Origin: Desulfovibrionales bacterium
Lineage (GTDB): Bacteria; Desulfobacterota; Desulfovibrionia; Desulfovibrionales; JBKHAV01
Length of the DNA: 60,074 bases
Direction: 5' to 3'
Assembly: GCA_046542715.1 (NCBI GenBank)
Contig: JBKHAV010000004.1
Location: forward strand, 1 to 60,074
Under the pieces are notes generated by a model that saw nothing but the letters and a program-made list of their open reading frames with translations, did no database searches and was not told where the DNA came from. The position numbers and the translations under genes were made by a program. Shown piece by piece: positions 4,080-57,867 of this stretch; the first letter of the stretch is position 1, and each line of letters opens with the position of its first letter.

Positions 4080-5057
4080 CTATTTTGAGTTCTTGAGAAA
4101 CGTTTCTGTGAAATAGGACAAAATGATATCAGCTCCGGCCCGTTTGATGGCGGTCAGCGATTCCAGCATGGCGCCATGTTCATCGAGCCAGCCCAGCCGG
4201 GCCGCAGCCTTGATCTGGGAATATTCGCCGCTGACCTGGTATGCGGCAATGGGCGTGTCAAAGGTGTCGCGAAGTGTCTTGATCACGTCCAGGTAGGGTC
4301 CGGCCGGTTTGACCATGAGGATGTCCGCCCCTTCGTCAAGGTCCGCCGCAGCTTCGCGCAATCCCTCGAGTGCGTTGGCCGGGTCCATCTGATGTGAACG
4401 GCGGTCCCCAAACTTGGGCGCGCCTTCGGCTGCCTCGCGAAAGGGACCGTAAAACGAGGACGCGTACTTCACGGCGTAGCTCATGACCGGCAGCGACGCA
4501 AAGCCGTTTTCGTCCAGGGCCGCCCGGATCGCGGCGACTCGGCCGTCCATCATGTCCGAGGGCGCGACCATGTCAGCCCCGGATTCGGCATGGGACAGCG
4601 CGGTTTTGGCGAGCAGTTTCAGGGTCGGGTCATTGGCGATTTCGCCGTGCTCGATCACCCCGCAGTGGCCGTGGGAGGTGTATTCGCACAGGCAGACGTC
4701 GGTGATGACCACCAGTCCGGGGAAGTTTCTTTTCAGTGTCCTGACCGCACGCTGGATAACGCCGTGTTCGGCGCAGGCCTGGGAGCCGGTTTCGTCTTTT
4801 TCAGCAGGGATGCCGAAGAGAATGCAGGAGACCAGCCCGTTGTCCACAGCCTGTCCCACCTGCTCTACCAGCCTGGGGATGGAGAGCTGGTACTGACCGG
4901 GCATGGAGGAGATCTCTTTTTTGAAATCATCCTCCCTGTCCACCGCGAAGTAAGGCTGCACGAGATCTTCGGGGCGAAGCGCGGTCTCGGCGACCATGCG
5001 CCGGATACCGGGGTTCATTCGCAGGCGGCGGCCTCTGTAGAATGCGGGCATTGGCAT
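4080..5057 (-). CDS. hemB: Porphobilinogen synthase
   Basis: [38 protein letters not shown] and AYQVSGEY motifs. Confidence 0.98.
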
Positions 5058-5078
5058 AAGCTAACCTCTGTTGAAGAG

Positions 5079-5220
5079 AACTTCGAATATGGAAATCAGA
5101 AATTCGAAAGAAACTCAAAAAACCTGAGAGAGAAAGAAGCTTTTCTGCGAACTCTTATCCTTTGATCTTTGATTGAAGCGAAGCTCTTGTTTCGAATTTC
5201 GATATTCGAATTTCGAATTT
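5079..5220. repeat. Inverted degenerate 7-mer tandem repeats (AAATTCG)n ... (CGAATTT)n between ahbC and hemB
   Basis: AACTTCG AATATGG AAATCAG AAATTCG from 5079; GTTTCG AATTTCG ATATTCG AATTTCG AATTT at 5189-5220. Confidence 0.75.
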
Positions 5221-6406
5221 ATTCTTCGATCCTGATCTCTTCATCCGTCAGATAGCAAGCCGGGTCGTCGGCCCAGATGTCGCCGTACACGGCCTCGGCC
5301 CGCGCCCGGAAGTTGCCGCCGCAGATATTCAGGTACCTGCAGGACTGACATCTCCCCTTGAGATAGGGGCGCTTGTCCTTGAGCTTGTGCAGGAGTTCGA
5401 TATTGGGATCGTCCCATATCTCTGAAAACGGGCGTTCCAGCACATTGCCGAAGGTATGGTTTCTCCAAAACTGGTCGGCATGAACCCGGCCGTCCCAGGA
5501 GATGCAGCCGATCCCCCGGCCGGTGGAATTGCCCTGGTTCCAGGAGAGCAGTTCCAAAACCTGTTCGGCGCGTTTTGGATCTTCCCGCTTGAGTCGCTCG
5601 TACACGAGCGGGCCGTCGGCGTGGTTGTCCACGGTGAGCACTTCTTTTTCCAGGCCGGCCTGGTACAGCGCCCGGGTTTCGTCCATGATGAGGTGAACCG
5701 CGGCGCGGGTTTCGGCATGGGTCAGGTCCTCGTTCACCAGTTCCGAGCCCCGCCCGGAGTAGACGAGATGATAGAAGCAGATGCGGGGCACTTCGAGATC
5801 CCTGATCAGCTGAAAAAGAAAGGGGATGTCTTGGGCGTTGCGCTTATTGATGGTGAAGCGCAGTCCCACCTTGAGATCTTCGGCCTTGCAGTTCTCGATG
5901 CCTGCCACAGCCATGTCAAAGGCTTTGTCAGAACCCCGGAATTTGTTGTGGGTCTCGGGTGCGCCGTCCATGGAAATGCCCACGTAGGAGAGTCCGACTT
6001 CCTTGAGTTCCCTGGCTTTTTCCTTGGTGATGAGCGTGCCGTTGGTGGAGATGACCGCGCGCATGCCCTTGGATGTGGCATGGAGGGCAAGTTCGACCAG
6101 ATCCTTGCGCACGAGGGGTTCCCCGCCGGAAAAGAGCATGACCGGCGCTCCATAGGCAGCCAGATCATCGATCATCTCCTTGGCGGCGTCTGTGCCGATG
6201 ATGTCCGATCCCTCTTCCTCCACGGCCTTGGCGTAGCAGTGCACGCATTTCTGGTTGCAGCGCTGGGTGGAGTTCCAGACGACAACCGGTTTCTTGTCCT
6301 TGGAGAACTGGAGCAGATGGGAGGGCAGCTTTCCGGAGTGACGGCCGTACCGGAGTGCATCCGAAGGCTCGACCGAGCCGCAGTAGAGTTTGGAAATACC
6401 GATCAT
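5219..6406 (-). CDS. ahbC: Radical SAM 12,18-didecarboxysiroheme deacetylase (Fe-coproporphyrin synthase)
   Basis: MIGISKLYCG...DALRYGR N-terminus, CNQKCVHCY, TVDNHADG and CGGNFRARA; GAGGT RBS before ATG at 6406. Confidence 0.92.
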   Translation of the reverse strand: MIGISKLYCGSVEPSDALRYGRHSGKLPSHLLQFSKDKKPVVVWNSTQRCNQKCVHCYAKAVEEEGSDIIGTDAAKEMIDDLAAYGAPVMLFSGGEPLVRKDLVELALHATSKGMRAVISTNGTLITKEKARELKEVGLSYVGISMDGAPETHNKFRGSDKAFDMAVAGIENCKAEDLKVGLRFTINKRNAQDIPFLFQLIRDLEVPRICFYHLVYSGRGSELVNEDLTHAETRAAVHLIMDETRALYQAGLEKEVLTVDNHADGPLVYERLKREDPKRAEQVLELLSWNQGNSTGRGIGCISWDGRVHADQFWRNHTFGNVLERPFSEIWDDPNIELLHKLKDKRPYLKGRCQSCRYLNICGGNFRARAEAVYGDIWADDPACYLTDEEIRIEE

Positions 6407-48058: not shown

Positions 48059-49487
48059 GTGGAGCGACTCGGTCGCTTTGGTGAAATCATCGTCTCGACC
48101 CAGGATCCCGTGCGCCGCAGAAATACCCGTTTGGCCGCTCAGATCCTGGCTCAGGATTCCGCGTTTGAACGCGACCCTCTGGTTCACGGAATGGTGTGGG
48201 CGACGTTCGGGTCGATTCGCAAGATCGCTGCCATGCGAAACATTCGAGACACGAATCAGGAGATCATTACCGTACAGAAGCAGCGTTGCGCAGAGATGAT
48301 CGATGAACTCCAACTTCTGAACAAATCCTCTTTATCCCGAAATGTCGACTCCCCGGCTTTTGTTTCTCTGGTCGGAAACCTGAATGCCATGCTGCATCTC
48401 CTCTCCATGGCCGACACGGCATCCACCCTTGAGGAACTTGATGCTCTTAACAGGGCATTCACGACATATCGAGATGCTGCACACCGGATGATCGAGGAGA
48501 GTGTCTACCGGGAAAGTCGGGCGGGCATCCCTTTGAAAACGGCAGAGTTGAACCGGCTTGAGCAGGCGTTCGACGCCAGGGCGGCGGTGCTGCAGAACGA
48601 TATTCAGTGTGATGCGCTCTGGCGGGATTCTCTTTCCAAGCTGGAGGAATTGACAGACAAGCTTTCATTGGGAGCGGCGGCAAAGGCATCAGGCAGAATG
48701 CTTGAAATCAAAGCCGCGGCAATGGGCATAAAGAAAGCTGGACTCCTGGTCATTATCGGGCTGATGCTCCTCATGACCTTGCTCATTCTTCTTTTCAGGC
48801 GCTACATCGTCCAGCCCATCATCAATGCATCCAAAGGGCTGGAAGCTGTTCATTCCGGAAGCGGCCGGTTCGAGATTCCTGAGGCGAGAATTTTGGAACT
48901 CCATGCCATTGGGGATTCCGTGGAACGGTTCGGCAGGGCCCTGGAACAGATTAAAGAGAACAATGTCAAACTCAAGCACCAGTCCAGACAGGATGGATTG
49001 ACCGGTATTGCCAACCGCCGTTCCTTCGACGAGAAGTACGAACAGGAATGGAACCGGGGCCGGCGCACGAAACGTCCTCTGTCCCTGCTGCTGATTGATA
49101 TCGATTTTTTCAAGCAGTTCAACGACACTTACGGACACCAGCAAGGGGGACGAGGCCCTGACGCTGGTGGCCGGAACCATCAACGGGGTATCCAAACGAT
49201 CCGGTGATTTCACTGCCCGTTACGGGGGAGAGGAATTTGTCATGGTTCTCCCGGAAACCGATTCGCATGGAGCACTGGCTATTGCAGACTCGATTCACAG
49301 AAGCATTGCAGATCTCGGTATAGAACACCAAACAGCTGCGACAACTCCCCGGCTGACAGTCAGCATCGGAGTGGCAACGGTGATTCCAAACGACACGATA
49401 CCAAAAGAAGCGTTGCTGAAACAGGCAGACCAGGCTCTTTTGAAATCCAAACGGAGCGGCAAAAATACCACGTGTGCGACGATATAA
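48059..49487 (+). pseudogene. Frameshifted TM-HAMP-GGDEF diguanylate cyclase
   Basis: DGLTGIANRR and DIDFFKQFND lie in one frame and GDEAL...RYGGEEF in the next; an extra G in the G5 run at 49145-49149 explains the shift. Confidence 0.85.
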
Positions 49488-49885: not shown

Positions 49886-50950
49886 ATGGCGAAAGGTTCC
49901 AGAGATTTTTCCAGTTTGGTGTTTATTCGTAATATCACTTCGAAACTGGAGAAATATTCCTTTGACTATGAAATGCTGCAGGTCTTTTATGCCATTGACG
50001 GCAAAAAGACAGTTGCCGCGATTGCCAAAGATCTGGACAAATCCGTCACTCAGATGAAGCCCAAATTCGACAAGCTTCATCAACAGCATCTTATTCTTCT
50101 GGCGCCACGGGATGTGGCCGGAATTTCCGAATCACAGGAAAGTGAAAGCAGCATCCCGGAACCCATGCCCGCCCCCCAGGAGCACGATTCCGAGACTCTC
50201 GATCCTCCGGTGATCGATTCCGTATCCGATCTGGGAGGGGAAGAAATCGAGGACATAGTAGGCAAAGAAATCGAGGATATGGATGAGCTCATCTCCGAGT
50301 TGACGCGATTGTCCGGTGAGGAGTTCTCAGTCGAGAAACCATCCGGCATTTCCCAAGTCGTAGGCACGGTGGCAGCAGATGAATCCGAGCTGGTCTGGGT
50401 CGATGATCTGTCGGTGGAGCAGAGTGAAAAGAACACTGCCGAGAGTTCCGCTCAGTCCGACATGGTCACGGAACCTGTAGAATCCAGGCAACCCGCGGAA
50501 AATGAATCCGAATCCCCGTCAGATCATGAGTTGGAAGATGACCCCTTCGAATACATGGACTGGACGGAACCAGAACAGAAGAACAGCACAAGCGATCTTT
50601 TCAGCATTGCAAAAAGGTTGAGCGAATCCACTGATACCCCTTTCAATACCTTCAGTCTTTCACGATCTTCGGATGAAAATATGAACGGGTTCTTTGCGAA
50701 GCCTTCGAAAACACCGGACTCCAGCTTTCCATCTTTTTCCGGCCGAAAAACAGAAGAGGATGAGCCTGAAACTCCACCAGTGAATCAACACGCCATCGAG
50801 CATTTCGAGAACGGCTTGGATGCATTGCAACGCAAGGTTTATGACGAGGCATTGCTGCACTTTGAACTGGCGAGCGAACTTGACCCTCAAAACCGTTTGT
50901 ACAAGGCGAATATTCAGCGAATCAAGACGATAATCGAATCAGGCGACTGA
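49886..50950 (+). CDS. Hypothetical protein: N-terminal wHTH-like domain, acidic disordered linker, C-terminal TPR
   Basis: IDGKKTVAAIA motif; long E/S/D/P-rich middle; HFENGLDAL...YDEAL..FELASELDPQN TPR. Confidence 0.7.
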   Translation: MAKGSRDFSSLVFIRNITSKLEKYSFDYEMLQVFYAIDGKKTVAAIAKDLDKSVTQMKPKFDKLHQQHLILLAPRDVAGISESQESESSIPEPMPAPQEHDSETLDPPVIDSVSDLGGEEIEDIVGKEIEDMDELISELTRLSGEEFSVEKPSGISQVVGTVAADESELVWVDDLSVEQSEKNTAESSAQSDMVTEPVESRQPAENESESPSDHELEDDPFEYMDWTEPEQKNSTSDLFSIAKRLSESTDTPFNTFSLSRSSDENMNGFFAKPSKTPDSSFPSFSGRKTEEDEPETPPVNQHAIEHFENGLDALQRKVYDEALLHFELASELDPQNRLYKANIQRIKTIIESGD

Positions 50951-50962
50951 GTCTTCAACACC

Positions 50963-51463
50963 ATGTCTCCCTATGAACACTCCCATCAAGGTCCTCCCAT
51001 CACCATCGTTGGTGCCGGCAACTGGCTCGTTTCCTGCGACAGGATCGGACCCAGGGTCCTGCAGCTTTGCCAGAGGAGATACGGTTCCGGGGTGGAACTG
51101 TTCGACAGCGGAAGCGCCGGACTGGCACTGCTGGACTGCATCAGGGGACAGGATCTCCTGATGGTGGTGGATGCGTGCAAGCACGGTGGCCCGAGCGGGG
51201 AAATCACAATCAGGGAGATGGATTTTATTTCGGATCTCACCCATGGACCGAGCGTTCATCAGATTGGACCCCTTGAAACTCTCGTCGTGGCCAGACATTT
51301 GTATCCGGAACGATTGCCCCGGCGCGTGTTGCTGGTCATGGTCGAAACCGAAGGAATGATGGAATCGGATCTGGACAGTGTCTGCAGACGGGTCATTGCC
51401 CTATTGGACAGGGAAATCTTCGACTGGCGGAAGCAGCATGAGCAGGAAATTCAATCCGTTTAA
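50963..51463 (+). CDS. Hydrogenase maturation protease (HybD/HycI family)
   Basis: IVGAGNWL, VVDA and SVH motifs; adjacent to the hydrogenase genes. Confidence 0.85.
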   Translation: MSPYEHSHQGPPITIVGAGNWLVSCDRIGPRVLQLCQRRYGSGVELFDSGSAGLALLDCIRGQDLLMVVDACKHGGPSGEITIREMDFISDLTHGPSVHQIGPLETLVVARHLYPERLPRRVLLVMVETEGMMESDLDSVCRRVIALLDREIFDWRKQHEQEIQSV

Positions 51464-51562
51464 CCCCACATGGGCTCGACAACGATGGTTGGCTGCGAAT
51501 TTTCAGCAGTTTGCATCCATCGCCGCATCGCTTTGAACCGGCCAATAGCAGAAGGAGTTGGA

Positions 51563-52054
51563 ATGGATACGCCTGAAAAGTTAAAATATTTACAGGGAAG
51601 CATGATTTTTCTGGCCTCAGTGGCCAATGGTCTGGAGGAACTTGTCGGCCGTGGAGCGCCAAGTGTCACGTTCAGGGCCGGCAGGAATATCGGGCTGAAG
51701 GCCAAGGTCTCCCGAAAGGAGACAGAACTGTTGGAGGCGTTTGCCGGTGTGCGGGACGAACTGCACAATTTGGGAATGCGCTGGGAGTTTGAACCCTACC
51801 AGAAAAAATCCGAAGCCGATCTGGTCACCACAACCGAGGACGGGATGGAGCTCAAACTCGTCTTTCGAGATTGCATGGTTCGTTCCTGTCAATTCTGCTA
51901 CGGACATCCCCAGAAAAATTCGCTTTGCATGCTCCAGCACGGCATCTTTTGCGGTCTTTTGCAGCAGATTTACGGGGCGTGGGCCGATTACGAGCCCATC
52001 CATTCCGGTGAAAACGCCTGCATCGGCATGCTCAAAATCAAGGCAAAAGGATAG
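51563..52054 (+). CDS. V4R-like (hydrocarbon/small-ligand-binding) protein
   Basis: AAGGAG RBS; RAGRNIG helix, DCMVR...LCMLQHGIFCG and terminal NAC pattern. Confidence 0.65.
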   Translation: MDTPEKLKYLQGSMIFLASVANGLEELVGRGAPSVTFRAGRNIGLKAKVSRKETELLEAFAGVRDELHNLGMRWEFEPYQKKSEADLVTTTEDGMELKLVFRDCMVRSCQFCYGHPQKNSLCMLQHGIFCGLLQQIYGAWADYEPIHSGENACIGMLKIKAKG

Positions 52055-52059
52055 ATCCC

Positions 52060-52980
52060 ATGGCTGCAAATCCAAAATTGTCTGTGGAGTGGCTGTCTGT
52101 TTGCTCCGGATGTGAGCTGGGCATCGTCGATATGCACGAAAAACTGCTCACGGTGCTTGAACAGGTTGATCTTGTCCGTCTGCCCATCCTTATGGACACC
52201 AAGGACTATGTCGATGCTGACATCGGGATCATCACCGGATCCATACGAACGGAGCATGACCTTGAATCGGCCAGAAAAATGCGCAAAGCGTGCAAGCTGA
52301 TCATGGCCTTTGGGACATGTGCCGTATACGGCGGCCCCCAGGGTGCGGCCTATGCCCATACCAACGAAGAACTCTTTGACCGGGCGTTTGTGAACAATGC
52401 CACCACATCGACCAGCACCGTACCCAGCGATGTCCCCAAGCTTCTGGACCATTCCCGGCCTCTGGATTCCGAGATCAAAGTGGACTTGTACATGCCCGGC
52501 TGCCCCCCGCATGCGGCGTTTATCTTCGAGGGGCTTGCGTCGCTATTGAAGGCGCGAAAATCCAAGATCGGGCGGCACTCCGTCTGTTACCGGTGCAGAA
52601 GGGTTATGAAGAAGACGGATGTCGCCACCATCCAGCGCACCATTGACAAGGATTTCGACCCGGAGCTCTGCTTTCTTTCCCAGGGGTGCCTCTGTTTCGG
52701 GTCTGTCACCCTGGACCGCTGCCTGTCTCCATGCATGAGCAATGGGGTGCCGTGCTTTTCCTGCGGCGGACCCACTTCGGACATCATCCTTGAACCGCAA
52801 AAGGATGTCCGCAGTCAGGTTGCCCTGCGCATGGCACACCTGACCAAAATTCCCTACGAAGAAATCGTGCATTCCATCGAGAAGCAGGCCAAAACCCATT
52901 TCGCTTATGCCATGGCATCTCCGGTCTTCCGTCAGAAACCGACCTTTCTGCTGAAGAAGTGGATGCAGAGCGAACAATAA
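52060..52980 (+). CDS. [NiFe]-hydrogenase small subunit, MvhG-like (group 3)
   Basis: CSGC, FGTCA, PGCPP, CYRC, CFLSQGCLCFG and C..PC...GVPCFSC ligands; no Tat signal. Confidence 0.9.
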   Translation: MAANPKLSVEWLSVCSGCELGIVDMHEKLLTVLEQVDLVRLPILMDTKDYVDADIGIITGSIRTEHDLESARKMRKACKLIMAFGTCAVYGGPQGAAYAHTNEELFDRAFVNNATTSTSTVPSDVPKLLDHSRPLDSEIKVDLYMPGCPPHAAFIFEGLASLLKARKSKIGRHSVCYRCRRVMKKTDVATIQRTIDKDFDPELCFLSQGCLCFGSVTLDRCLSPCMSNGVPCFSCGGPTSDIILEPQKDVRSQVALRMAHLTKIPYEEIVHSIEKQAKTHFAYAMASPVFRQKPTFLLKKWMQSEQ

Positions 52981-52997
52981 GCAATCAGGAGCCCCCC

Positions 52998-54392
52998 ATG
53001 TCACGTCAGATAGCGATTGATCCCATCACCAGAATCGAGGGACATGCCAGTGTCACCATCGATGTGGATGATGACAACCACATCTCCGGCGCCCTGTTCA
53101 GAGTCATGGACTTTCGTGGCTTTGAAACGTTTCTCCAGGGCATGCAGGTAGAGATGATGCCGACGATGACCGCGAGAATCTGCGGCACCTGTCCTGTGAC
53201 CCACCATGTGGCCGCATCACGCGCCGTGGATAAGGTTTTCGGTGCGACCATTCCGGAATCGGCTGAGGCCATGCGCAATATCCTCAATCTCGGAGCGCTG
53301 ATCAGTTCGCACGCCGTGCACTTTTTTGCCCTGGCCGGCCCCGACCTTCTTCTCGGCCTGGATGCGGACCCTGCAGAACGGAACATCATCGGCATGGTCA
53401 AGAAGCACCCTGCCATGTCCAAGAGCGCCTTGAGGCTGCGGACCATAGGACAGAACATCGTGGAACTGGTCGGGGGACGTGGGACCCATCCGGTTGCAAG
53501 CGTTCCGGGCGGGATGGCCGCCCCGTTGTCCAAGGAGAAGCTTCAGAAGTTGAAGGACCTTGTGGCCGAGGGGATGAATCTGGGGCAAAAACTGTACACG
53601 GCGGCCGCATCCATTCTCGGGACAAAAAAAGAGCTGATGCATTCCCTGCCCTTGGAGACCAACTATCTGGGAACGGTTTCAGACGGAGTTTTGGATTTCT
53701 ACAAGGGTGATATGCGATTCAAGAAAATCGACGGTACCAGTCTCGATGTTCCAGAAGACAACTGGGCTTCCCATATCTCAGAACAGGCAGTGGGGCATTC
53801 CTATGGAAAGTACGTTCTTTTCGATGCCGCCGGAGAGTCTCTCTCCTACCGCGTCGGCCCGCTGGCCAGACTCAACTGTGCAGACAGCATCGACACCCCC
53901 CTTGCCAATGCGGAACTGGAGAAGTTTCGTCATCAATTCGGGGCGATCTGTCATGAAACCGCTGCCTACCACTCCGCACGCATGATCGAACTTCTGCACG
54001 CGCTGGAAAAGCTGCAGAAGCTCGTCAGCAGTGATGCGCTCAAGAGCGACACGGTCAAGTCTCAGCTCGGTTCCCCGCGCAATGCCACAGCCCACGTCGA
54101 AGCGCCCCGCGGCATTTTGATCCATGACTATCAGGTGGATGGCGATGGAATTGTCACCAGAGCCAACCTGCTGGTCGCCACCCAGCAGAATCTGGAGGCT
54201 ATTGATTCCACCATCAAAATGTCTGCGGAACGATATATCGACCAGCCCGACAATCTTCTGCTCAATGCCGTCGAGTTCGGAATCCGGTGTTATGACCCCT
54301 GTCTGTCCTGCGCTACCCACCGGATGGGTGAGATGAAGCTGGAAGTGGTCATCAGGCGGAATGGAAAATTCATCCGCAGAGCAAGGAGATAA
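52998..54392 (+). CDS. [NiFe]-hydrogenase large subunit, MvhA-like (group 3)
   Basis: TRIEGH, RGFE, L1 RICGTC, EAPRG and L2 YDPCLSCATH followed by a cleavable 23-aa tail. Confidence 0.95.
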   Translation: MSRQIAIDPITRIEGHASVTIDVDDDNHISGALFRVMDFRGFETFLQGMQVEMMPTMTARICGTCPVTHHVAASRAVDKVFGATIPESAEAMRNILNLGALISSHAVHFFALAGPDLLLGLDADPAERNIIGMVKKHPAMSKSALRLRTIGQNIVELVGGRGTHPVASVPGGMAAPLSKEKLQKLKDLVAEGMNLGQKLYTAAASILGTKKELMHSLPLETNYLGTVSDGVLDFYKGDMRFKKIDGTSLDVPEDNWASHISEQAVGHSYGKYVLFDAAGESLSYRVGPLARLNCADSIDTPLANAELEKFRHQFGAICHETAAYHSARMIELLHALEKLQKLVSSDALKSDTVKSQLGSPRNATAHVEAPRGILIHDYQVDGDGIVTRANLLVATQQNLEAIDSTIKMSAERYIDQPDNLLLNAVEFGIRCYDPCLSCATHRMGEMKLEVVIRRNGKFIRRARR

Positions 54393-54395
54393 CCC

Positions 54396-55112
54396 ATGCC
54401 CAAAGTTTCTATAGCGGAAAATGGCTGCAGAGGGTGCACATTGTGCGAAGACATCTGCCCTGTCGATGTTTTCAGTTGCAACCCGGAAACGAATCTTGCT
54501 TCGGTCGTTGCTGCGGAAGATTGCATAGGCTGTCTGTCATGCATGTATGTCTGCCCGTCGCAATGCATCACTGTCTCAGACGTCACAATGATTCGACCGT
54601 TTCACAGAATCGAGGAGAACGTCGCCCTTGTGGATCAATTCCTCCAGACGCAGCCGGCCGCCGAAGTATTAACCGGAGAAGAACTCGATCAAGCCTACCA
54701 TGAGGTCGGCATTTTGCTGGCAGAATTTGCTGAGGCAATAACCGAGGTTCTGGGAAGAGGTCATAAATCAGTCGGGCGCAGAGCAGGAACGGTAGCCGCA
54801 TCACATCTTCCTGAAATGTATGAGGAAGATGTTTTGGACGATTTGCTGAAGCACATGAACCAGCGGTTCGGAAGCAGCTTTGATTTTACGTATTCGATAT
54901 CTGATCAGACCGACGTCAGCCTCTGCGTTCAGCCCTGTGGACTTTTGCAGGCAATCCGCACGGCCGGGGAAGAACCAGGGGAGTCGGTACTCTGCCTGCT
55001 CTTCCACGAGTACTGGGCGGCTCTGATCAGTTCCTTTACAGGTGCAAAGTACTCGTACAAGGTCCAGGAGGCCGGTGAAAAATGCTGCATGACTCTGCAG
55101 CCGCTTGAATGA
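54396..55112 (+). CDS. 2[4Fe-4S] ferredoxin fused to a V4R-like domain
   Basis: CRGCTLCEDICP and CIGCLSCMYVCP; the C-terminal domain resembles the 51563 protein. Confidence 0.8.
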   Translation: MPKVSIAENGCRGCTLCEDICPVDVFSCNPETNLASVVAAEDCIGCLSCMYVCPSQCITVSDVTMIRPFHRIEENVALVDQFLQTQPAAEVLTGEELDQAYHEVGILLAEFAEAITEVLGRGHKSVGRRAGTVAASHLPEMYEEDVLDDLLKHMNQRFGSSFDFTYSISDQTDVSLCVQPCGLLQAIRTAGEEPGESVLCLLFHEYWAALISSFTGAKYSYKVQEAGEKCCMTLQPLE

Positions 55113-55192
55113 TATCAGGGCAGCGGATTGGGCCAATAGGCTCTTTATCACTATATTTGTAAACTGAACACATCTGCTGAAGGAGAAGAACG

Positions 55193-55561
55193 ATGGCTAG
55201 CAAGACGGAAAAAATCACGGAAATTTTGCGGGGACTCCGCGTCAGTTCGCCGGATATCTTCGGTGCAGCCGTAGTCAGTCTGGACGGCTTTCTCATTGCT
55301 GCCGTGGCCCCCTCAGAGATTGACGAAGAGCTTGTGGCAGGTATGTCAGCGGCACTGCTTGGAACTGGTGAACGCATTTCCTCGGAACTTATGCGTTCCC
55401 CTTTGACCCAAATCTACGTGAAGTCCGATAAGGGGTTTGTCATTTTGAACTCGGTAGGTTCGGAATCGGTCCTTGTGCTCCTGGTCTCGAGCGAAGCGAA
55501 ACTCGGACTCATCTTTCTTGAACTGCGGCGGATGATCCCTGCTTTGCAGAAGGTCATTTAA
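55193..55561 (+). CDS. Roadblock/LC7 (MglB-like) protein
   Basis: AAVVSLDGFLIA, VAGMSAALLG.GER and AKLGLIFLE motifs. Confidence 0.9.
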   Translation: MASKTEKITEILRGLRVSSPDIFGAAVVSLDGFLIAAVAPSEIDEELVAGMSAALLGTGERISSELMRSPLTQIYVKSDKGFVILNSVGSESVLVLLVSSEAKLGLIFLELRRMIPALQKVI

Positions 55562-55575
55562 AAAGAGAGATCAAT

Positions 55576-56232
55576 TTGCAAACCAGACTCATTGCGGGCA
55601 TCGTTCTGTGCCTGGCCCTTGGGATGGCGGACATCGTGTACCTGAATCTTCAGGTCATGCCTTCTATTTGGGCCACGCGGCTTCCCCAGGGTTCGGCACC
55701 ATCGGACACGATTTCTGGTGGTGCATCATCTGCAATGAGCCAATCGTTTGAGAGCCGAAAAGTGGACCCGGTTGAAGTGGATGTTTCGCTTCAGCCGCAA
55801 TCGAGTGGAAATCCGGAACAGAGTGCAGATTCCACGGCACAAAGATCTTCTCGTGAACACGCGAACACTTCCGATGTTCAGGGGCATGTCTCTGAAGTCG
55901 TGCTGAACTTCCCCCCTCTGGGGTTCAGGTTAGAGCCTGAACAGGTCGCAAAGCTCAGCCGAGTCCTGGATCAGCTCCCGAGCCGTGGGCAAATCCGGGT
56001 CCACATCAGCGGCCACAGCGACAGAACCGGCTATAATTCGGTGGACAACACCAAGCTCAGCCGGCAGCGTGCTGAATCCATTGCTGTGTTTTTGCAGGGG
56101 AGGGGTTTCCCTGCAGAACAGATCACACTTGAGGCACATGGTGCCTCGCAGCCTGTAGACAGGAACAATACTCCTGCTGCCTGGGCAAAGAACCGACGGG
56201 CAGAGGTACGCTTTTTCGAGGACAGATCATGA
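55576..56232 (+). CDS. Membrane-anchored OmpA/MotB-like peptidoglycan-binding protein
   Basis: N-terminal TM; GHSDRTG...N..LS.QRA and NRRAE motifs. Confidence 0.85.
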   Translation: MQTRLIAGIVLCLALGMADIVYLNLQVMPSIWATRLPQGSAPSDTISGGASSAMSQSFESRKVDPVEVDVSLQPQSSGNPEQSADSTAQRSSREHANTSDVQGHVSEVVLNFPPLGFRLEPEQVAKLSRVLDQLPSRGQIRVHISGHSDRTGYNSVDNTKLSRQRAESIAVFLQGRGFPAEQITLEAHGASQPVDRNNTPAAWAKNRRAEVRFFEDRS

Positions 56233-57443
56233 CATTGACGCCAGAAATGATTGCGTGGATCGCCTCTTTTGCCGGAGCGCTTCTTTTTTTCATTGCCGGT
56301 TTTCTTTTGGCGAACCTGAGGGGTGTTTCTGCGACCGGGCAGGGTGCCACGAGACGCGGCCCCGTGGTCGGAGAAACCAGAGATCCTTCCCCCGGGGAGA
56401 ACTTCAATGACTCTTCTCCTCAGGAGATCCGGGCGTCTGATGCAATCCTTCGGGAACTCGAAGAGTACAAAAAGCTTCATGAACAGCAAAAGGAGGAGAA
56501 CAAGTCCATTTTTGCGGCCGCAAAAAGTCGGATCGTCAAAATGAAACGACAAGTGGAAACGACCAATGCAGCCGTTACGGAACTCAAGGCAAAGCTCAGC
56601 GCTGCCCATCGAAAACTGGCAGAGGCTGAATCCGAAAAGACCACATTGTCCGGCGAACTGCAGCGTGTCCGTGAGGAACTCGCATCCCGAAGCGATGGTG
56701 CCGCGGCATCTGCCAGAGAAGAAGAACTCCACCGTGAACTTGCCCTCAAGACGGAGAAATTCGACGAGCAGGTCAGATATCTGGAGAAACTGGAGGAAAC
56801 GAACCGCGAGTTGGCTTCGCAGGCAAAAATCCTCGAAGATGAGATGAAAAGGCTTGCCGACCTTGAAAGCACCAACCAAGAACTTTCGATCAAATCGGAA
56901 CGGCTCCAGGACCGGATCAGGGAAATGGAGAGCCTCAAAGAGGAAAATCGCACCCTCAAATCAAATCTTGTCGAGCTTGAAGCTTCCCATAATGAGATTG
57001 CCCGCCTGAAAAAGGAAAACGCGAAACTCAACTCCATGGGAATCGTAATCCAGGAACCACCCAAACCAAGCACGGTGCTCGCTTCTCCCGATGGGTTCGG
57101 AGGCGCCTGTCAGAATGTGGTGAACCAGCTTTCCAAGCCCAAAACCTCCCGTGGCGTCGTCCTTGCCGACGAACTGGGACTGCTCATTGCAGGAACAGGC
57201 GATCACACGGAATCCATGGCTGCAATGGCAGCGATTTTTTCAACCATGAGCGAACGAGTGGGGTCCATTCTTCCTTTCAGTGAGATCGATCAGATCACCA
57301 TCGCCAATATGGACAAACTCACCCTGACCATGCAGCCTTATGAAATTGCATCCGACAAACTCATTGTCACGGCATTGTCTGTGGGACCGGGCCCGACCCG
57401 TGAGGAAGTGACCGAACTCATCAAGCAGAACGCTGCGGCATAG
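56229..57443 (+). CDS. Membrane-anchored coiled-coil protein with C-terminal Roadblock-like domain
   Basis: N-terminal TM, about 200 aa of E/K/L-rich heptads, then RGVVLADELGLLIAG...MAAMAA. Confidence 0.75.
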   Translation: MTLTPEMIAWIASFAGALLFFIAGFLLANLRGVSATGQGATRRGPVVGETRDPSPGENFNDSSPQEIRASDAILRELEEYKKLHEQQKEENKSIFAAAKSRIVKMKRQVETTNAAVTELKAKLSAAHRKLAEAESEKTTLSGELQRVREELASRSDGAAASAREEELHRELALKTEKFDEQVRYLEKLEETNRELASQAKILEDEMKRLADLESTNQELSIKSERLQDRIREMESLKEENRTLKSNLVELEASHNEIARLKKENAKLNSMGIVIQEPPKPSTVLASPDGFGGACQNVVNQLSKPKTSRGVVLADELGLLIAGTGDHTESMAAMAAIFSTMSERVGSILPFSEIDQITIANMDKLTLTMQPYEIASDKLIVTALSVGPGPTREEVTELIKQNAAA

Positions 57444-57474: not shown

Positions 57475-57771
57475 CTACCGCGTTGTCACGCTGGATTTTT
57501 TCTTGTTAATTTGAGGTTCAAACCCCTTCCGCTCCTTGTTTTGCTTGAAAATTTCTAAAGTCCTCTCCCATTCTGCCGGAAGACAAAAATCCTCCTCCAG
57601 GATTTCAAAAAATTCTCCACCACCGAGGTTGAGTTCATCCCTTTCCGGATGGTGCTCCTTTAACCATCGCAATGCCTCTTTGGCTTCAGTCATGTTGTCT
57701 GCCGTGAAGCAGTCGATGGGTTTTTTGGTGCCGTCAGCAAGCATTTTGCAAAGCAGAAATTTTCTTGCCAT
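57475..57771 (-). CDS. Small hypothetical protein
   Basis: AAGGAGA RBS before MARKFLLC; 98 aa. Confidence 0.65.
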   Translation of the reverse strand: MARKFLLCKMLADGTKKPIDCFTADNMTEAKEALRWLKEHHPERDELNLGGGEFFEILEEDFCLPAEWERTLEIFKQNKERKGFEPQINKKKSSVTTR

Positions 57772-57867
57772 GGGTTCTCCTTGTCCGACATCCTGCCGTT
57801 GATACGTGGAGAAAAGATTTGTGAAGGACCAATCCTTTCTGCGCCACGATATCATGGAAACCAGACC

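Follow-up and report, generated by a model that had tools for sequence, protein, structure and literature searches.

The window considered here is the whole analysed stretch of 60,074 nucleotides (nt) from a Desulfovibrionales bacterium (assembly GCA_046542715.1, contig JBKHAV010000004.1). It is contig C101 of a 2.8-Mb assembly that is 87% complete, and near-identical DNA is present in sequencing runs labelled microbial mat metagenome. Between positions 49886 and 57443, its + strand carries nine tightly packed open reading frames (ORFs) of the same orientation, designated g1 to g9, which encode a group 3 [NiFe]-hydrogenase together with V4R-fold, Roadblock/LC7, OmpA-like and coiled-coil proteins. 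The enzyme belongs to a clade whose constant partners comprise a free V4R-fold module (g3) and a second one fused to or encoded beside a 2x[4Fe-4S] ferredoxin (g6), and Roadblock/LC7 genes are tightly linked in two of the three subclades of this clade. The nine co-oriented and closely spaced genes of a preliminary description of this DNA, made from its letters without database searches, were all found again at the same coordinates:

g1, 49886-50950, + strand: adaptor protein with a basic N-terminal domain of about 75 amino acids (aa), tentatively winged-helix-like, an acidic Pro/Ser/Thr-rich linker and a C-terminal TPR-like hairpin.
g2, 50963-51463, + strand: [NiFe]-hydrogenase maturation endopeptidase.
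g3, 51470-52054 (likely start 51563), + strand: free V4R-fold protein.
g4, 52060-52980, + strand: MvhG/VhuG-like [NiFe]-hydrogenase small subunit, cytoplasmic.
g5, ORF from 52959 with likely ATG at 52998, end at 54392, + strand: [NiFe]-hydrogenase large subunit.
g6, 54396-55112, + strand: 2x[4Fe-4S] ferredoxin domain fused to a V4R-fold domain.
g7, 55193-55561, + strand: soluble Roadblock/LC7 protein.
g8, 55576-56232, + strand: N-terminal membrane or signal anchor and a predicted periplasmic OmpA-like peptidoglycan-binding domain.
g9, 56229-57443, + strand: N-terminal transmembrane helix, coiled coil of about 200 aa and C-terminal Roadblock-like domain.

From g1 to g8, the intergenic gaps measure 12, 6, 5, 17, 3, 80 and 14 nt in this order, the 80 nt between g6 and g7 being the widest within the cluster, and g8 and g9 overlap by 4 nt. 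The flanks agree with the preliminary description as well: a GGDEF gene upstream ends at 49487, which leaves 398 nt ahead of g1 where a gap of about 400 bp had been described, and a 126-aa ORF on the - strand (57475-57855) converges on the cluster from downstream. A scan for promoters and terminators gave no more sites than in shuffled sequence, so that the operon limits are drawn from spacing and strand only. Since its synteny is conserved in other genomes, the gene arrangement as such goes beyond chance expectation.

Protein families were assigned by Pfam and NCBIfam profile searches of the nine window proteins, in which scores were compared with the cut-offs of the models. The large subunit g5 matches Pfam NiFeSe_Hases with 103.4 bits, its top NCBIfam model is VhuA (341.8 bits, under the cut-off of 800), and its best PDB matches are MvhA (5odc_F, 363.5 bits), 7t2r_D (346.5 bits) and an NAD-reducing enzyme (5xf9_D, 299.2 bits). 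The small subunit g4 matches Pfam Oxidored_q6 with 96.7 bits and, as top NCBIfam model, VhuG with 185.5 bits, under the cut-off of 450. Judged from these matches, g5 is a group 3 enzyme closest to Mvh/Vhu (3c), as the preliminary description had recognized from both subunits; g4 and g5 nevertheless remain far below the Vhu equivalog cut-offs and do not qualify as Vhu/Mvh equivalogs. The Ni-Fe ligand motifs RICGTC (Cys62/65) and DPCLSC (Cys435/438), already read as intact, were confirmed, and a C-terminal extension is present after DPCLSCATH. The small subunit contains 14 cysteines, including C15, C18, C87, C148 and nine within residues 176-235, which would suffice for three clusters, and no twin-arginine motif is visible upon direct reading of its N-terminus. 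The protease encoded by g2 is of the HycI/HybD type (Pfam HycI 37.7 bits, cut-off 23; TIGR00072 67.9 bits, cut-off 47.45), and its gene also adjoins the structural genes in the related loci L001-L003, L005, L017, L019 and L058.

A search of genome contigs with the large subunit led to five loci, all of which carry g3-g6. Four of them carry g7, g8 and g9 in addition; these derive from two Desulfohalobiaceae metagenome-assembled genomes (MAGs), one 'Polyangiaceae' MAG and one Chitinivibrionales MAG, in which the g7-g8-g9 trio is divergent and located 4 kb upstream of the hydrogenase genes. In L005, from a Thermoanaerobaculia MAG (G001), g3-g6 occur without a nearby Roadblock gene, and a 43%-identical Roadblock pair is encoded elsewhere in the genome. 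On contig C1 of G001 (L034:9354-10191), two tandem Roadblock genes are found between genes for hemerythrin-domain and response-regulator proteins. When metagenome contigs were searched starting from the Roadblock protein, 16 loci were obtained, 11 with at least 49% identity to g7. In nine of these 11, g6 is located directly upstream of the Roadblock gene; of the other two, L022 shows no more than a weak V4R-like match, and L023 is truncated by the start of its contig. No hydrogenase is present in the remaining five, with at most 46% identity to g7, of which L025, L026 and L028 were read in their context. Such distant Roadblock homologues were set aside as other subfamilies, the contexts of L025, L026, L028 and L034 being unrelated to each other or to hydrogenases.

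The distribution of the system was estimated by searching g6 in whole genomes of four phyla, the genome at the centre of each search being counted and 7-9 top candidates scored per genome, which makes all counts lower bounds. At least 3 of 401 genomes carry the system in the phylum of the host, where the other 10 listed matches cover the ferredoxin part only. The corresponding values are at least 3 of 401 in the phylum of genome G003, at least 8 of 296 in that of G002 and at least 9 of 401 in that of G001. Overall, the system is rare, with at least 23 of 1,399 genomes in the four phyla. The loci can be divided into three types:

Type A: fused ferredoxin-V4R; large subunit at least 50% identical to g5; Roadblock gene downstream of g6, at most 5 kb away in 7 of 8 informative hydrogenase-first loci (L001-L004, L047, L051 and L058, but not L005; L052 is cut).
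Type B: ferredoxin and V4R as split genes; large subunit 42-46% identical to g5; Roadblock gene linked in one of six loci (L049).
Type C: fused ferredoxin-V4R; large subunit 36-42% identical to g5; in all nine informative loci, the V4R gene is preceded by one to three upstream Roadblock genes, which adjoin it in eight loci and are 1.4 kb away in L062 (L056 is cut).

V4R genes are linked to the hydrogenase in all three types and in every locus read. The Roadblock genes of L053, L055 and L057 were scanned and are confirmed by Pfam. The type C loci L053-L063, with up to three Roadblock genes in tandem and, in part of them, DUF4388/PATAN proteins nearby, are exemplified by L053:13111-14244, L063:5744-6565 and L062:15394-16233. 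The type A locus L052 (G874:C129:1-2200) matches the large subunit only over residues 1-181 and 361-464, the small subunit over 258-306 and the protease over 7-56, and looks degraded, which may indicate a decaying copy or a mis-assembly. In L051 (16536-18512; G876), a second group 3 hydrogenase, with a large subunit 37% identical to g5 and outside the V4R-partnered clade in the tree, is encoded about 3 kb upstream.

In a quick IQ-TREE analysis of 29 large subunits, the 26 V4R-partnered ones form one clade with a Shimodaira-Hasegawa-like approximate likelihood ratio (SH-aLRT) support of 96, within which types A, B and C are supported with 97, 98 and 100, respectively. This clade is separate from two enzymes of the same genome, the MvhD-linked enzyme on contig C77 and the 3b-like enzyme on C125. 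A careful tree of 28 rows agrees, with a clade support of 94/95 and the same A/B split. The enzyme of L024 groups with large subunits whose source names are Thiomargarita, Kentron and Magnetococcales. The V4R-partnered group 3 enzymes are hence a distinct and phylogenetically coherent clade with type C as the deeper sister. Roadblock genes are kept with the hydrogenase across phyla and deep clades. That this linkage is seen in two deep subclades, each with its own gene order, speaks for a functional coupling.

Group 3 hydrogenases are usually recognized by their electron-accepting partners. The classification table of HydDB, in the available text of PMC5037454, defines groups 3a-3d by F420, NADP, Hdr and NAD partners, assigns to 3c the bifurcation of electrons to heterodisulfide and ferredoxin, and places sensory enzymes in groups 2b and 2c. 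An enzyme without regular accessory genes has been proposed as 'group 3E' in a preprint on Chloroflexi, according to its available part (10.1101/2021.08.23.457424). Among the nine cluster proteins, Pfam and NCBIfam searches detected no FlpD/MvhD, Hdr, flavoprotein or NAD(P)/F420 module, in agreement with the preliminary description, which had found no usual group 3 partner in the cluster. Matches to FlpD in the host genome are confined to the contigs C77, C174 and C170, and a use in trans is possible. Apart from that of the window, the genome holds five other [NiFe] large-subunit loci. One of them (G000:C77:14691-17489; L009, L035) encodes a [NiFeSe] hydrogenase of the Vhu type, in whose DPCxxC motif an in-frame TGA takes the place of the first Cys codon, and the MvhD/FlpD gene adjoining this Sec-containing enzyme also has an in-frame TGA. 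With a VhuA score of 495 bits, the C77 enzyme is, by its matches and neighbours, the canonical MvhD-linked paralogue of the host genome.

An ordinary Mvh-type (3c) enzyme that uses MvhD/HdrA from elsewhere, with the Roadblock, OmpA and coiled-coil genes as unrelated neighbours, would be in line with VhuA, VhuG and the MvhA structure as top matches, with the FlpD/MvhD homologues on other contigs and with the label 'F420-non-reducing hydrogenase' that the sources give to relatives. The window enzyme also shares with the Mvh/Vhu enzymes of group 3c (MvhADG, PDB 5odc) the closest sequence similarity of the subunits, the cytoplasmic location, RxCGxC and DPCxxC motifs, small-subunit cysteines for three clusters, the C-terminal extension of the large subunit and an encoded protease. 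In contrast to these enzymes, the window cluster encodes neither MvhD with its [2Fe-2S] cluster nor Hdr, and its partners are two V4R modules and a 2x[4Fe-4S] ferredoxin. Its subunits score below the cut-offs (341.8 vs 800 and 185.5 vs 450 bits), and its large subunit falls into a separate clade, g5 being 37% identical to the MvhD-linked paralogue on C77, and VhuA scores are 342-370 bits for types A, B and C versus 495 bits for that paralogue. Considering also that V4R linkage is found in all subtypes and Roadblock linkage in two deep subclades of different gene order and in at least four phyla, this explanation is strongly disfavoured and scarcely credible. The source annotations of relatives read 'F420-non-reducing hydrogenase large subunit' or 'Ni/Fe hydrogenase subunit alpha', and the clade is therefore hidden inside 3c in current annotation.

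The V4R assignment of the two constant partners rests on fold and homology. With 13.1 bits (E 0.1), g3 is below the threshold of Pfam V4R (PF02830, cut-off 31), as are the relatives P0157 (22.8 bits, E 9.9e-5) and P0161 (16.4 bits), and it has no meaningful PDB relative by sequence. The family of g3 is small, with 62 representatives at E <= 1e-3 in a full scan of 1.84 billion proteins. Its homologues align only from about residue 32, which makes M32 (51563) the likely true start. An AlphaFold2 model of g3, built from a 34-row alignment, reaches a predicted local distance difference test score (pLDDT) of 95.1. Among PDB structures, Foldseek ranks the PoxR, MopR and DmpR V4R sensor domains first (probability 1.00, TMq 0.57-0.63, E 1.4e-4 and weaker), to which g3 has 12-16% sequence identity, and then BcsD, TRAPP Bet3/TPC6 and H-NOX. 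A V4R/Bet3/H-NOX-like fold is supported by this model, whereas membership in the V4R family is not reached by sequence, and the description of g3 as V4R-like stands in this restricted sense.

In g6, residues 4-65 match Pfam Fer4 and 4Fe-4S dicluster families, and the eight cluster cysteines of this ferredoxin domain are invariant in 14 of 14 aligned sequences. It is a canonical 2x[4Fe-4S] domain and resembles carriers of the RnfB, PsaC and OorD type. The C-terminus of g6 has no Pfam V4R match; its last 150 residues were related to the g3 family by hhalign with a probability of 99.5% (E 1.6e-22) and on this ground constitute a paralogue of g3. Through the Fer4 matches and this homology, the ferredoxin-V4R fusion of the preliminary description was corroborated. 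Both V4R modules carry a conserved set of Cys, Cys-x3-His and Cys: C104 and C122 are invariant and C153 is nearly invariant in 34 sequences of g3, and C181, C200 and C230 of g6 are invariant in 14 of 14 sequences, with H204 nearly so. This set is a candidate metal site like the structural zinc (Zn) position of PoxR-type proteins. In the available text of PMC10933270, Zn is bound by cysteines within the V4R fold of PoxR and of an Asgard TRAPPC3 homologue (Thor-TRAPPC3), and a ligand cavity is present in solved V4R/Bet3/H-NOX relatives. The conserved Cys-rich site of g3 and g6 is located in that part of the fold in which PoxR, MopR and DmpR, the best structural matches of g3, have their Zn site (PMC10933270, available text); in contrast to these, the V4R domains of g3 and g6 are not fused to an AAA+ sigma-54 activator, but are free or ferredoxin-fused and always found beside hydrogenase genes. 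A further member of the g3 family, P0133 (722 aa), has a kinase-like region (TCAD9/APH matches at about 359-419) ahead of a g3-like domain, residues 568-720 being 39% identical to g3.

The V4R family owes its name to a presumed vinyl reductase, and phenols, palmitate or haem are ligands of relatives. An H2-dependent reductase would accordingly be conceivable, in which the V4R pocket is catalytic or substrate-binding, electrons from g6 reduce a hydrophobic small molecule or a lipid-soluble carrier, and the membrane tether gives access to it. Such an activity would fit the direct fusion of ferredoxin and V4R domain in types A and C, the Cys/Cys-x3-His/Cys set in both modules, the linkage of the subclade to membrane anchors and the ligand cavity of the solved relatives (PMC10933270, available text). 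It is considered quite improbable, as no substrate can be named, as the Cys/His set is at the structural Zn position of PoxR-type proteins and Thor-TRAPPC3 (same source), and as the Roadblock, PATAN and kinase proteins would be left unexplained and L024 lacks the membrane proteins.

The soluble protein g7 matches Pfam Robl_LC7 (PF03259) with 50 bits, above the cut-off of 23, and was thereby verified as a Roadblock/LC7 protein. It is the most conserved protein of the cluster, with 74-96% identity versus 61-73% for the large subunit in the same orthologous loci. The protein g8, described earlier as a transmembrane OmpA protein, indeed matches Pfam OmpA (PF00691) with 60.7 bits over residues 112-207 (cut-off 27.2) and contains one hydrophobic segment only, which spans residues 5-23 or so (Kyte-Doolittle 19-residue mean 2.37). 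In g9, a hydrophobic segment at about residues 8-26 (Kyte-Doolittle mean 2.24) is followed by a region of coiled-coil composition (residues 71-270: 67% E/K/R/Q/L/A, 1% P+G) with weak coiled-coil-type matches to SMC/Rad50 models of NCBIfam at residues 72-268. For its C-terminus, the Robl_LC7 match is borderline (22.2 bits, cut-off 23); three of nine orthologues match Robl_LC7 and six of nine LAMTOR5 at E <= 0.01, and hhalign relates g9 only weakly to g7 (probability 12%). Of the transmembrane-coiled-coil-Roadblock architecture that had been proposed for g9, the first two elements were retained and the third remains borderline. Searches of the ESM Atlas with g9 and g7 returned only clusters of 'hypothetical protein' and generic Roadblock clusters. 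In a complex prediction for g3, g6 and g7, the score with g7 as partner was 0.12 against a mark of 0.32, which speaks neither for nor against binding.

Co-conservation with the hydrogenase, on which the preliminary description depended, holds for the Roadblock gene in types A and C, and the OmpA gene is missing from part of the loci. Gene g8 follows g7 in L001-L004, L014, L017-L020 and L023 and is absent from L015, L016, L047 and L051, where g9 directly follows g7; OmpA as a fixed part of the system was consequently abandoned. Orthologues of g9 are encoded in L001-L004, L015-L017, L019, L020, L047 and L051. The g9 homologue of L020 (4998-6093) is distributed over two reading frames (4998-5723 and 5707-6093), which points to a frameshift or an error in the sequencing of that metagenome contig. 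With g8 missing from several loci and neither g8 nor g9 within 3 kb downstream of g7 in L024, the soluble Roadblock protein appears as the core partner, g9 as a frequent addition and g8 as optional.

Roadblock-fold proteins such as MglB, Ragulator and conservon components usually regulate GTPases. A phmmer search with the MglA-like protein of the genome as query revealed no GTPase at E <= 1e-3 in the ORFs of 29 loci, and no GTPase family and no DUF742 were matched by the nine window proteins in Pfam and NCBIfam. The window system thus resembles MglA/MglB and the Streptomyces conservon (CvnA-D) in having a Roadblock/LC7 protein as a conserved small partner and differs from them in lacking an adjoining MglA/CvnD GTPase or DUF742. 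The analogy to these systems drawn in the preliminary description is therefore incomplete. At G000:C60:6044-6949, an MglA-like Ras-family GTPase gene adjoins a Roadblock/MglB-like gene, the only other clear Roadblock match in the assembly.

A role of the Roadblock protein in maturation or assembly, in which it would regulate a GTPase such as HypB at nickel insertion or chaperone the V4R/ferredoxin subunits, could draw on the same habit of the fold, on HypB being a GTPase, on the hypB gene on C121 of the host genome and on the maturation protease of the cluster. Yet no linked hyp gene or GTPase was found in the 29 loci with the MglA-like query, HypB itself not having been searched for. A membrane-bound coiled-coil Roadblock-like protein and a peptidoglycan anchor are hard to reconcile with such a role, and other [NiFe] enzymes mature without Roadblock proteins, so that it is regarded as very improbable.

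The upstream adaptor g1 has no Pfam or NCBIfam match at E <= 0.01, HTH_47 (E 0.04) and TPR_2 (E 0.073) being weak matches. Its residues 1-80 have an isoelectric point (pI) of 9.5, and residues 81-290 have a pI of 4.1 with 25% D+E. An AlphaFold2 model of residues 1-90 (pLDDT 71.8) shows a strand, three helices and a strand, for which Foldseek found nothing at E <= 0.001 and only weak winged-helix matches at E >= 0.05. The winged-helix assignment is tentative. Of the wHTH-TPR architecture proposed before, what is left is a winged-helix-like domain in the model and, in place of a TPR domain, a single TPR-like hairpin (TPR_2 E 0.073). This hairpin, the C-terminal 55 residues or so, is conserved in an alignment of L001, L002, L003, L017, L019 and L047. 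In L019 (954 aa), L047 (568 aa) and L051, a g1-type hairpin forms the C-terminus of a Hanks-type Ser/Thr kinase, which takes the position of g1 in these loci. The subclade of the window is characterized by g9 in most loci, g8 in many, and an upstream adaptor with an exchangeable winged-helix-like or kinase head. For residues 1-85 of g1, only four close homologue clusters were found among 5.8 billion proteins, and a search with residues 295-354 returned its own cluster only. Since the homologue searches returned so few sequences, the spread of the hairpin is known from the loci examined alone.

Further kinases, beyond those with the hairpin, are encoded in L003, L004 (two), L019, L054 and L057. 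DUF4388/PATAN proteins occur in seven loci, L019 and L047 of type A and L059-L063 of type C, and the DUF4388/PATAN ORFs of L062 and L063 have C-termini that weakly match the Roadblock model of g7. In L053, a PAS histidine kinase (Pfam) is followed by an ORF whose N-terminus, by eye, resembles a response regulator. The networks that govern polarity and motility in myxobacteria typically contain PATAN/DUF4388 proteins, Ser/Thr kinases and coiled-coil proteins. The signalling role suggested in the preliminary description was strengthened by the recurrent Ser/Thr kinases, the PATAN/DUF4388 proteins and P0133, and it has not displaced a catabolic one.

With slightly less than even confidence, the system is interpreted as a membrane-tethered, H2- or redox-responsive signalling or positioning complex; everything in its mechanism beyond gene linkage is inference. 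The large and small subunits would split or make H2 in the cytoplasm, and electrons would pass via the three clusters of the small subunit to the two [4Fe-4S] clusters of g6, the end of the encoded wire. The V4R pair of g3 and the g6 C-terminus might respond to the redox state of the g6 clusters or to a ligand that occupies the hydrophobic pocket of the V4R fold. Coupling of this module by g7 to the Roadblock-like end of g9 would keep the enzyme at the cytoplasmic membrane, on its inner side, while g8 would fix the assembly to the cell wall. The adaptor with the TPR hairpin may bring in an output or input element, which could be a DNA-binding domain here and a Ser/Thr kinase in other lineages. 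H2 or redox status would in this way be translated into gene regulation, phosphorylation or localisation rather than bulk energy conservation.

The idea of a [NiFe] enzyme feeding a signalling protein is shared with the group 2b and putative group 2c sensors, which are coupled to a histidine kinase and a diguanylate cyclase, respectively; the kinase neighbours here are Ser/Thr kinases. Unlike those sensors, the window enzyme belongs to group 3 and keeps its extension and protease, and V4R, Roadblock, PATAN and Hanks-type kinase proteins stand in the place of a PAS histidine kinase or a protein with GGDEF domain. Upstream of g1, the GGDEF gene (48059-49487, + strand) is split into two overlapping ORFs, with GGDEF positions 3-55 in 48059-49207 and 53-160 in 49095-49487, which indicates a frameshift due to either an assembly error or a pseudogene. 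A link to this gene by analogy with 2c hydrogenases was rejected on account of the frameshift and because none of the conserved gene clusters among ten loci compared contains it.

Several observations weigh against a signalling or positioning complex. The large subunit g5 keeps its C-terminal extension and the cluster its own endopeptidase, as is typical of catalytic enzymes; to our knowledge, the known group 2b H2 sensors have neither. A wire ending in a ferredoxin-type domain is equally expected of an enzyme that exchanges electrons with soluble ferredoxin. Five of the six type B loci and L005 have no linked Roadblock gene, and the enzyme can consequently exist without one. In L024, g7 is not followed by g8 or g9 over the next 3 kb, and a membrane tether is accordingly no strict requirement. 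None of the output domains is shared by all loci, the kinases occur in only part of the loci and are abundant in Myxococcota anyway, and the winged-helix-like domain is limited to the closest relatives (four protein clusters and L001 and L002). The GTPase that a Roadblock partner would lead one to expect is missing from the 29 loci.

These observations also bear on a metabolic alternative, a bidirectional cytoplasmic hydrogenase coupled to ferredoxin or another carrier, for which the V4R and Roadblock proteins would be structural, assembly or anchoring subunits. Such an enzyme might be placed at the membrane, for example near a membrane redox complex, and the kinases, PATAN proteins and winged-helix protein would merely regulate it. 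Intact catalytic motifs, a cleavable C-terminal extension and a dedicated protease are what this alternative predicts, as are small-subunit cysteines sufficient for three clusters and a canonical 2x[4Fe-4S] domain like that of the RnfB, PsaC and OorD carriers. Type B and L005 without linked Roadblock genes and L024 without linked membrane proteins would represent its self-sufficient enzymatic core. The cluster contributes no flavin-, NAD(P)-, F420- or Hdr-type module, however, by which the enzyme could be linked to metabolism, and the folds of all its partners (V4R, Roadblock, PATAN, kinase, winged helix) are those usually met in sensing or regulation. The distribution of the system is rare and patchy, in genomes already holding several hydrogenases, and conservation is higher in the Roadblock protein than in the catalytic subunits. 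A scaffolded enzyme of purely metabolic function is deemed somewhat unlikely, and is yet a strong competitor of the signalling interpretation.

A more specific form of the signalling interpretation, in which a TRAPP/Ragulator-like scaffold of V4R and Roadblock proteins holds the group 3 hydrogenase at the membrane and turns H2 availability into a signalling output, which would differ between lineages (Ser/Thr kinase, PATAN protein or winged-helix adaptor), is unlikely as a whole. As in the eukaryotic and Asgard TRAPP core and Ragulator, both fold families are co-encoded, g3 corresponding to Bet3/TPC6 and g7 and g9 to Robl_LC7/LAMTOR5. In contrast to these assemblies, no GTPase client is encoded and the cargo would be a redox enzyme. 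The likeness is one of folds and is known from genes alone, and it would not demonstrate a common descent of the assemblies.

If this interpretation were true, the clade would represent a second, independently evolved class of H2 sensors outside group 2, and it would provide a case of prokaryotic cooperation between the Bet3 and Roadblock folds without a co-encoded GTPase. No paper linking a hydrogenase with Roadblock or V4R partners was found in a literature search that did not extend to supplements and subscription journals, where a prior mention is possible. Group 3 hydrogenases are classified, and their physiology is predicted, by their electron-accepting partner. As large-subunit classifiers and annotations label the clade 'F420-non-reducing' or 3c, surveys would assign to it an electron-bifurcating Mvh-Hdr role, which is unsupported by its gene content. 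The carriers live in sediments and microbial mats and comprise sulfate reducers, Myxococcota, Fibrobacterota and Acidobacteriota and, by source names only, Thiomargarita, Kentron and Magnetococcales. Through a conserved link of a hydrogenase to Roadblock, V4R, PATAN and kinase proteins, H2 sensing, or the positioning of H2 metabolism within the cell, would become accessible to experimental tests in these organisms. The link would also provide a genetically defined bacterial case in which the two folds of the eukaryotic TRAPP and Ragulator scaffolds are paired, and it suggests an unrecognised way in which cells may read or position their hydrogen metabolism.

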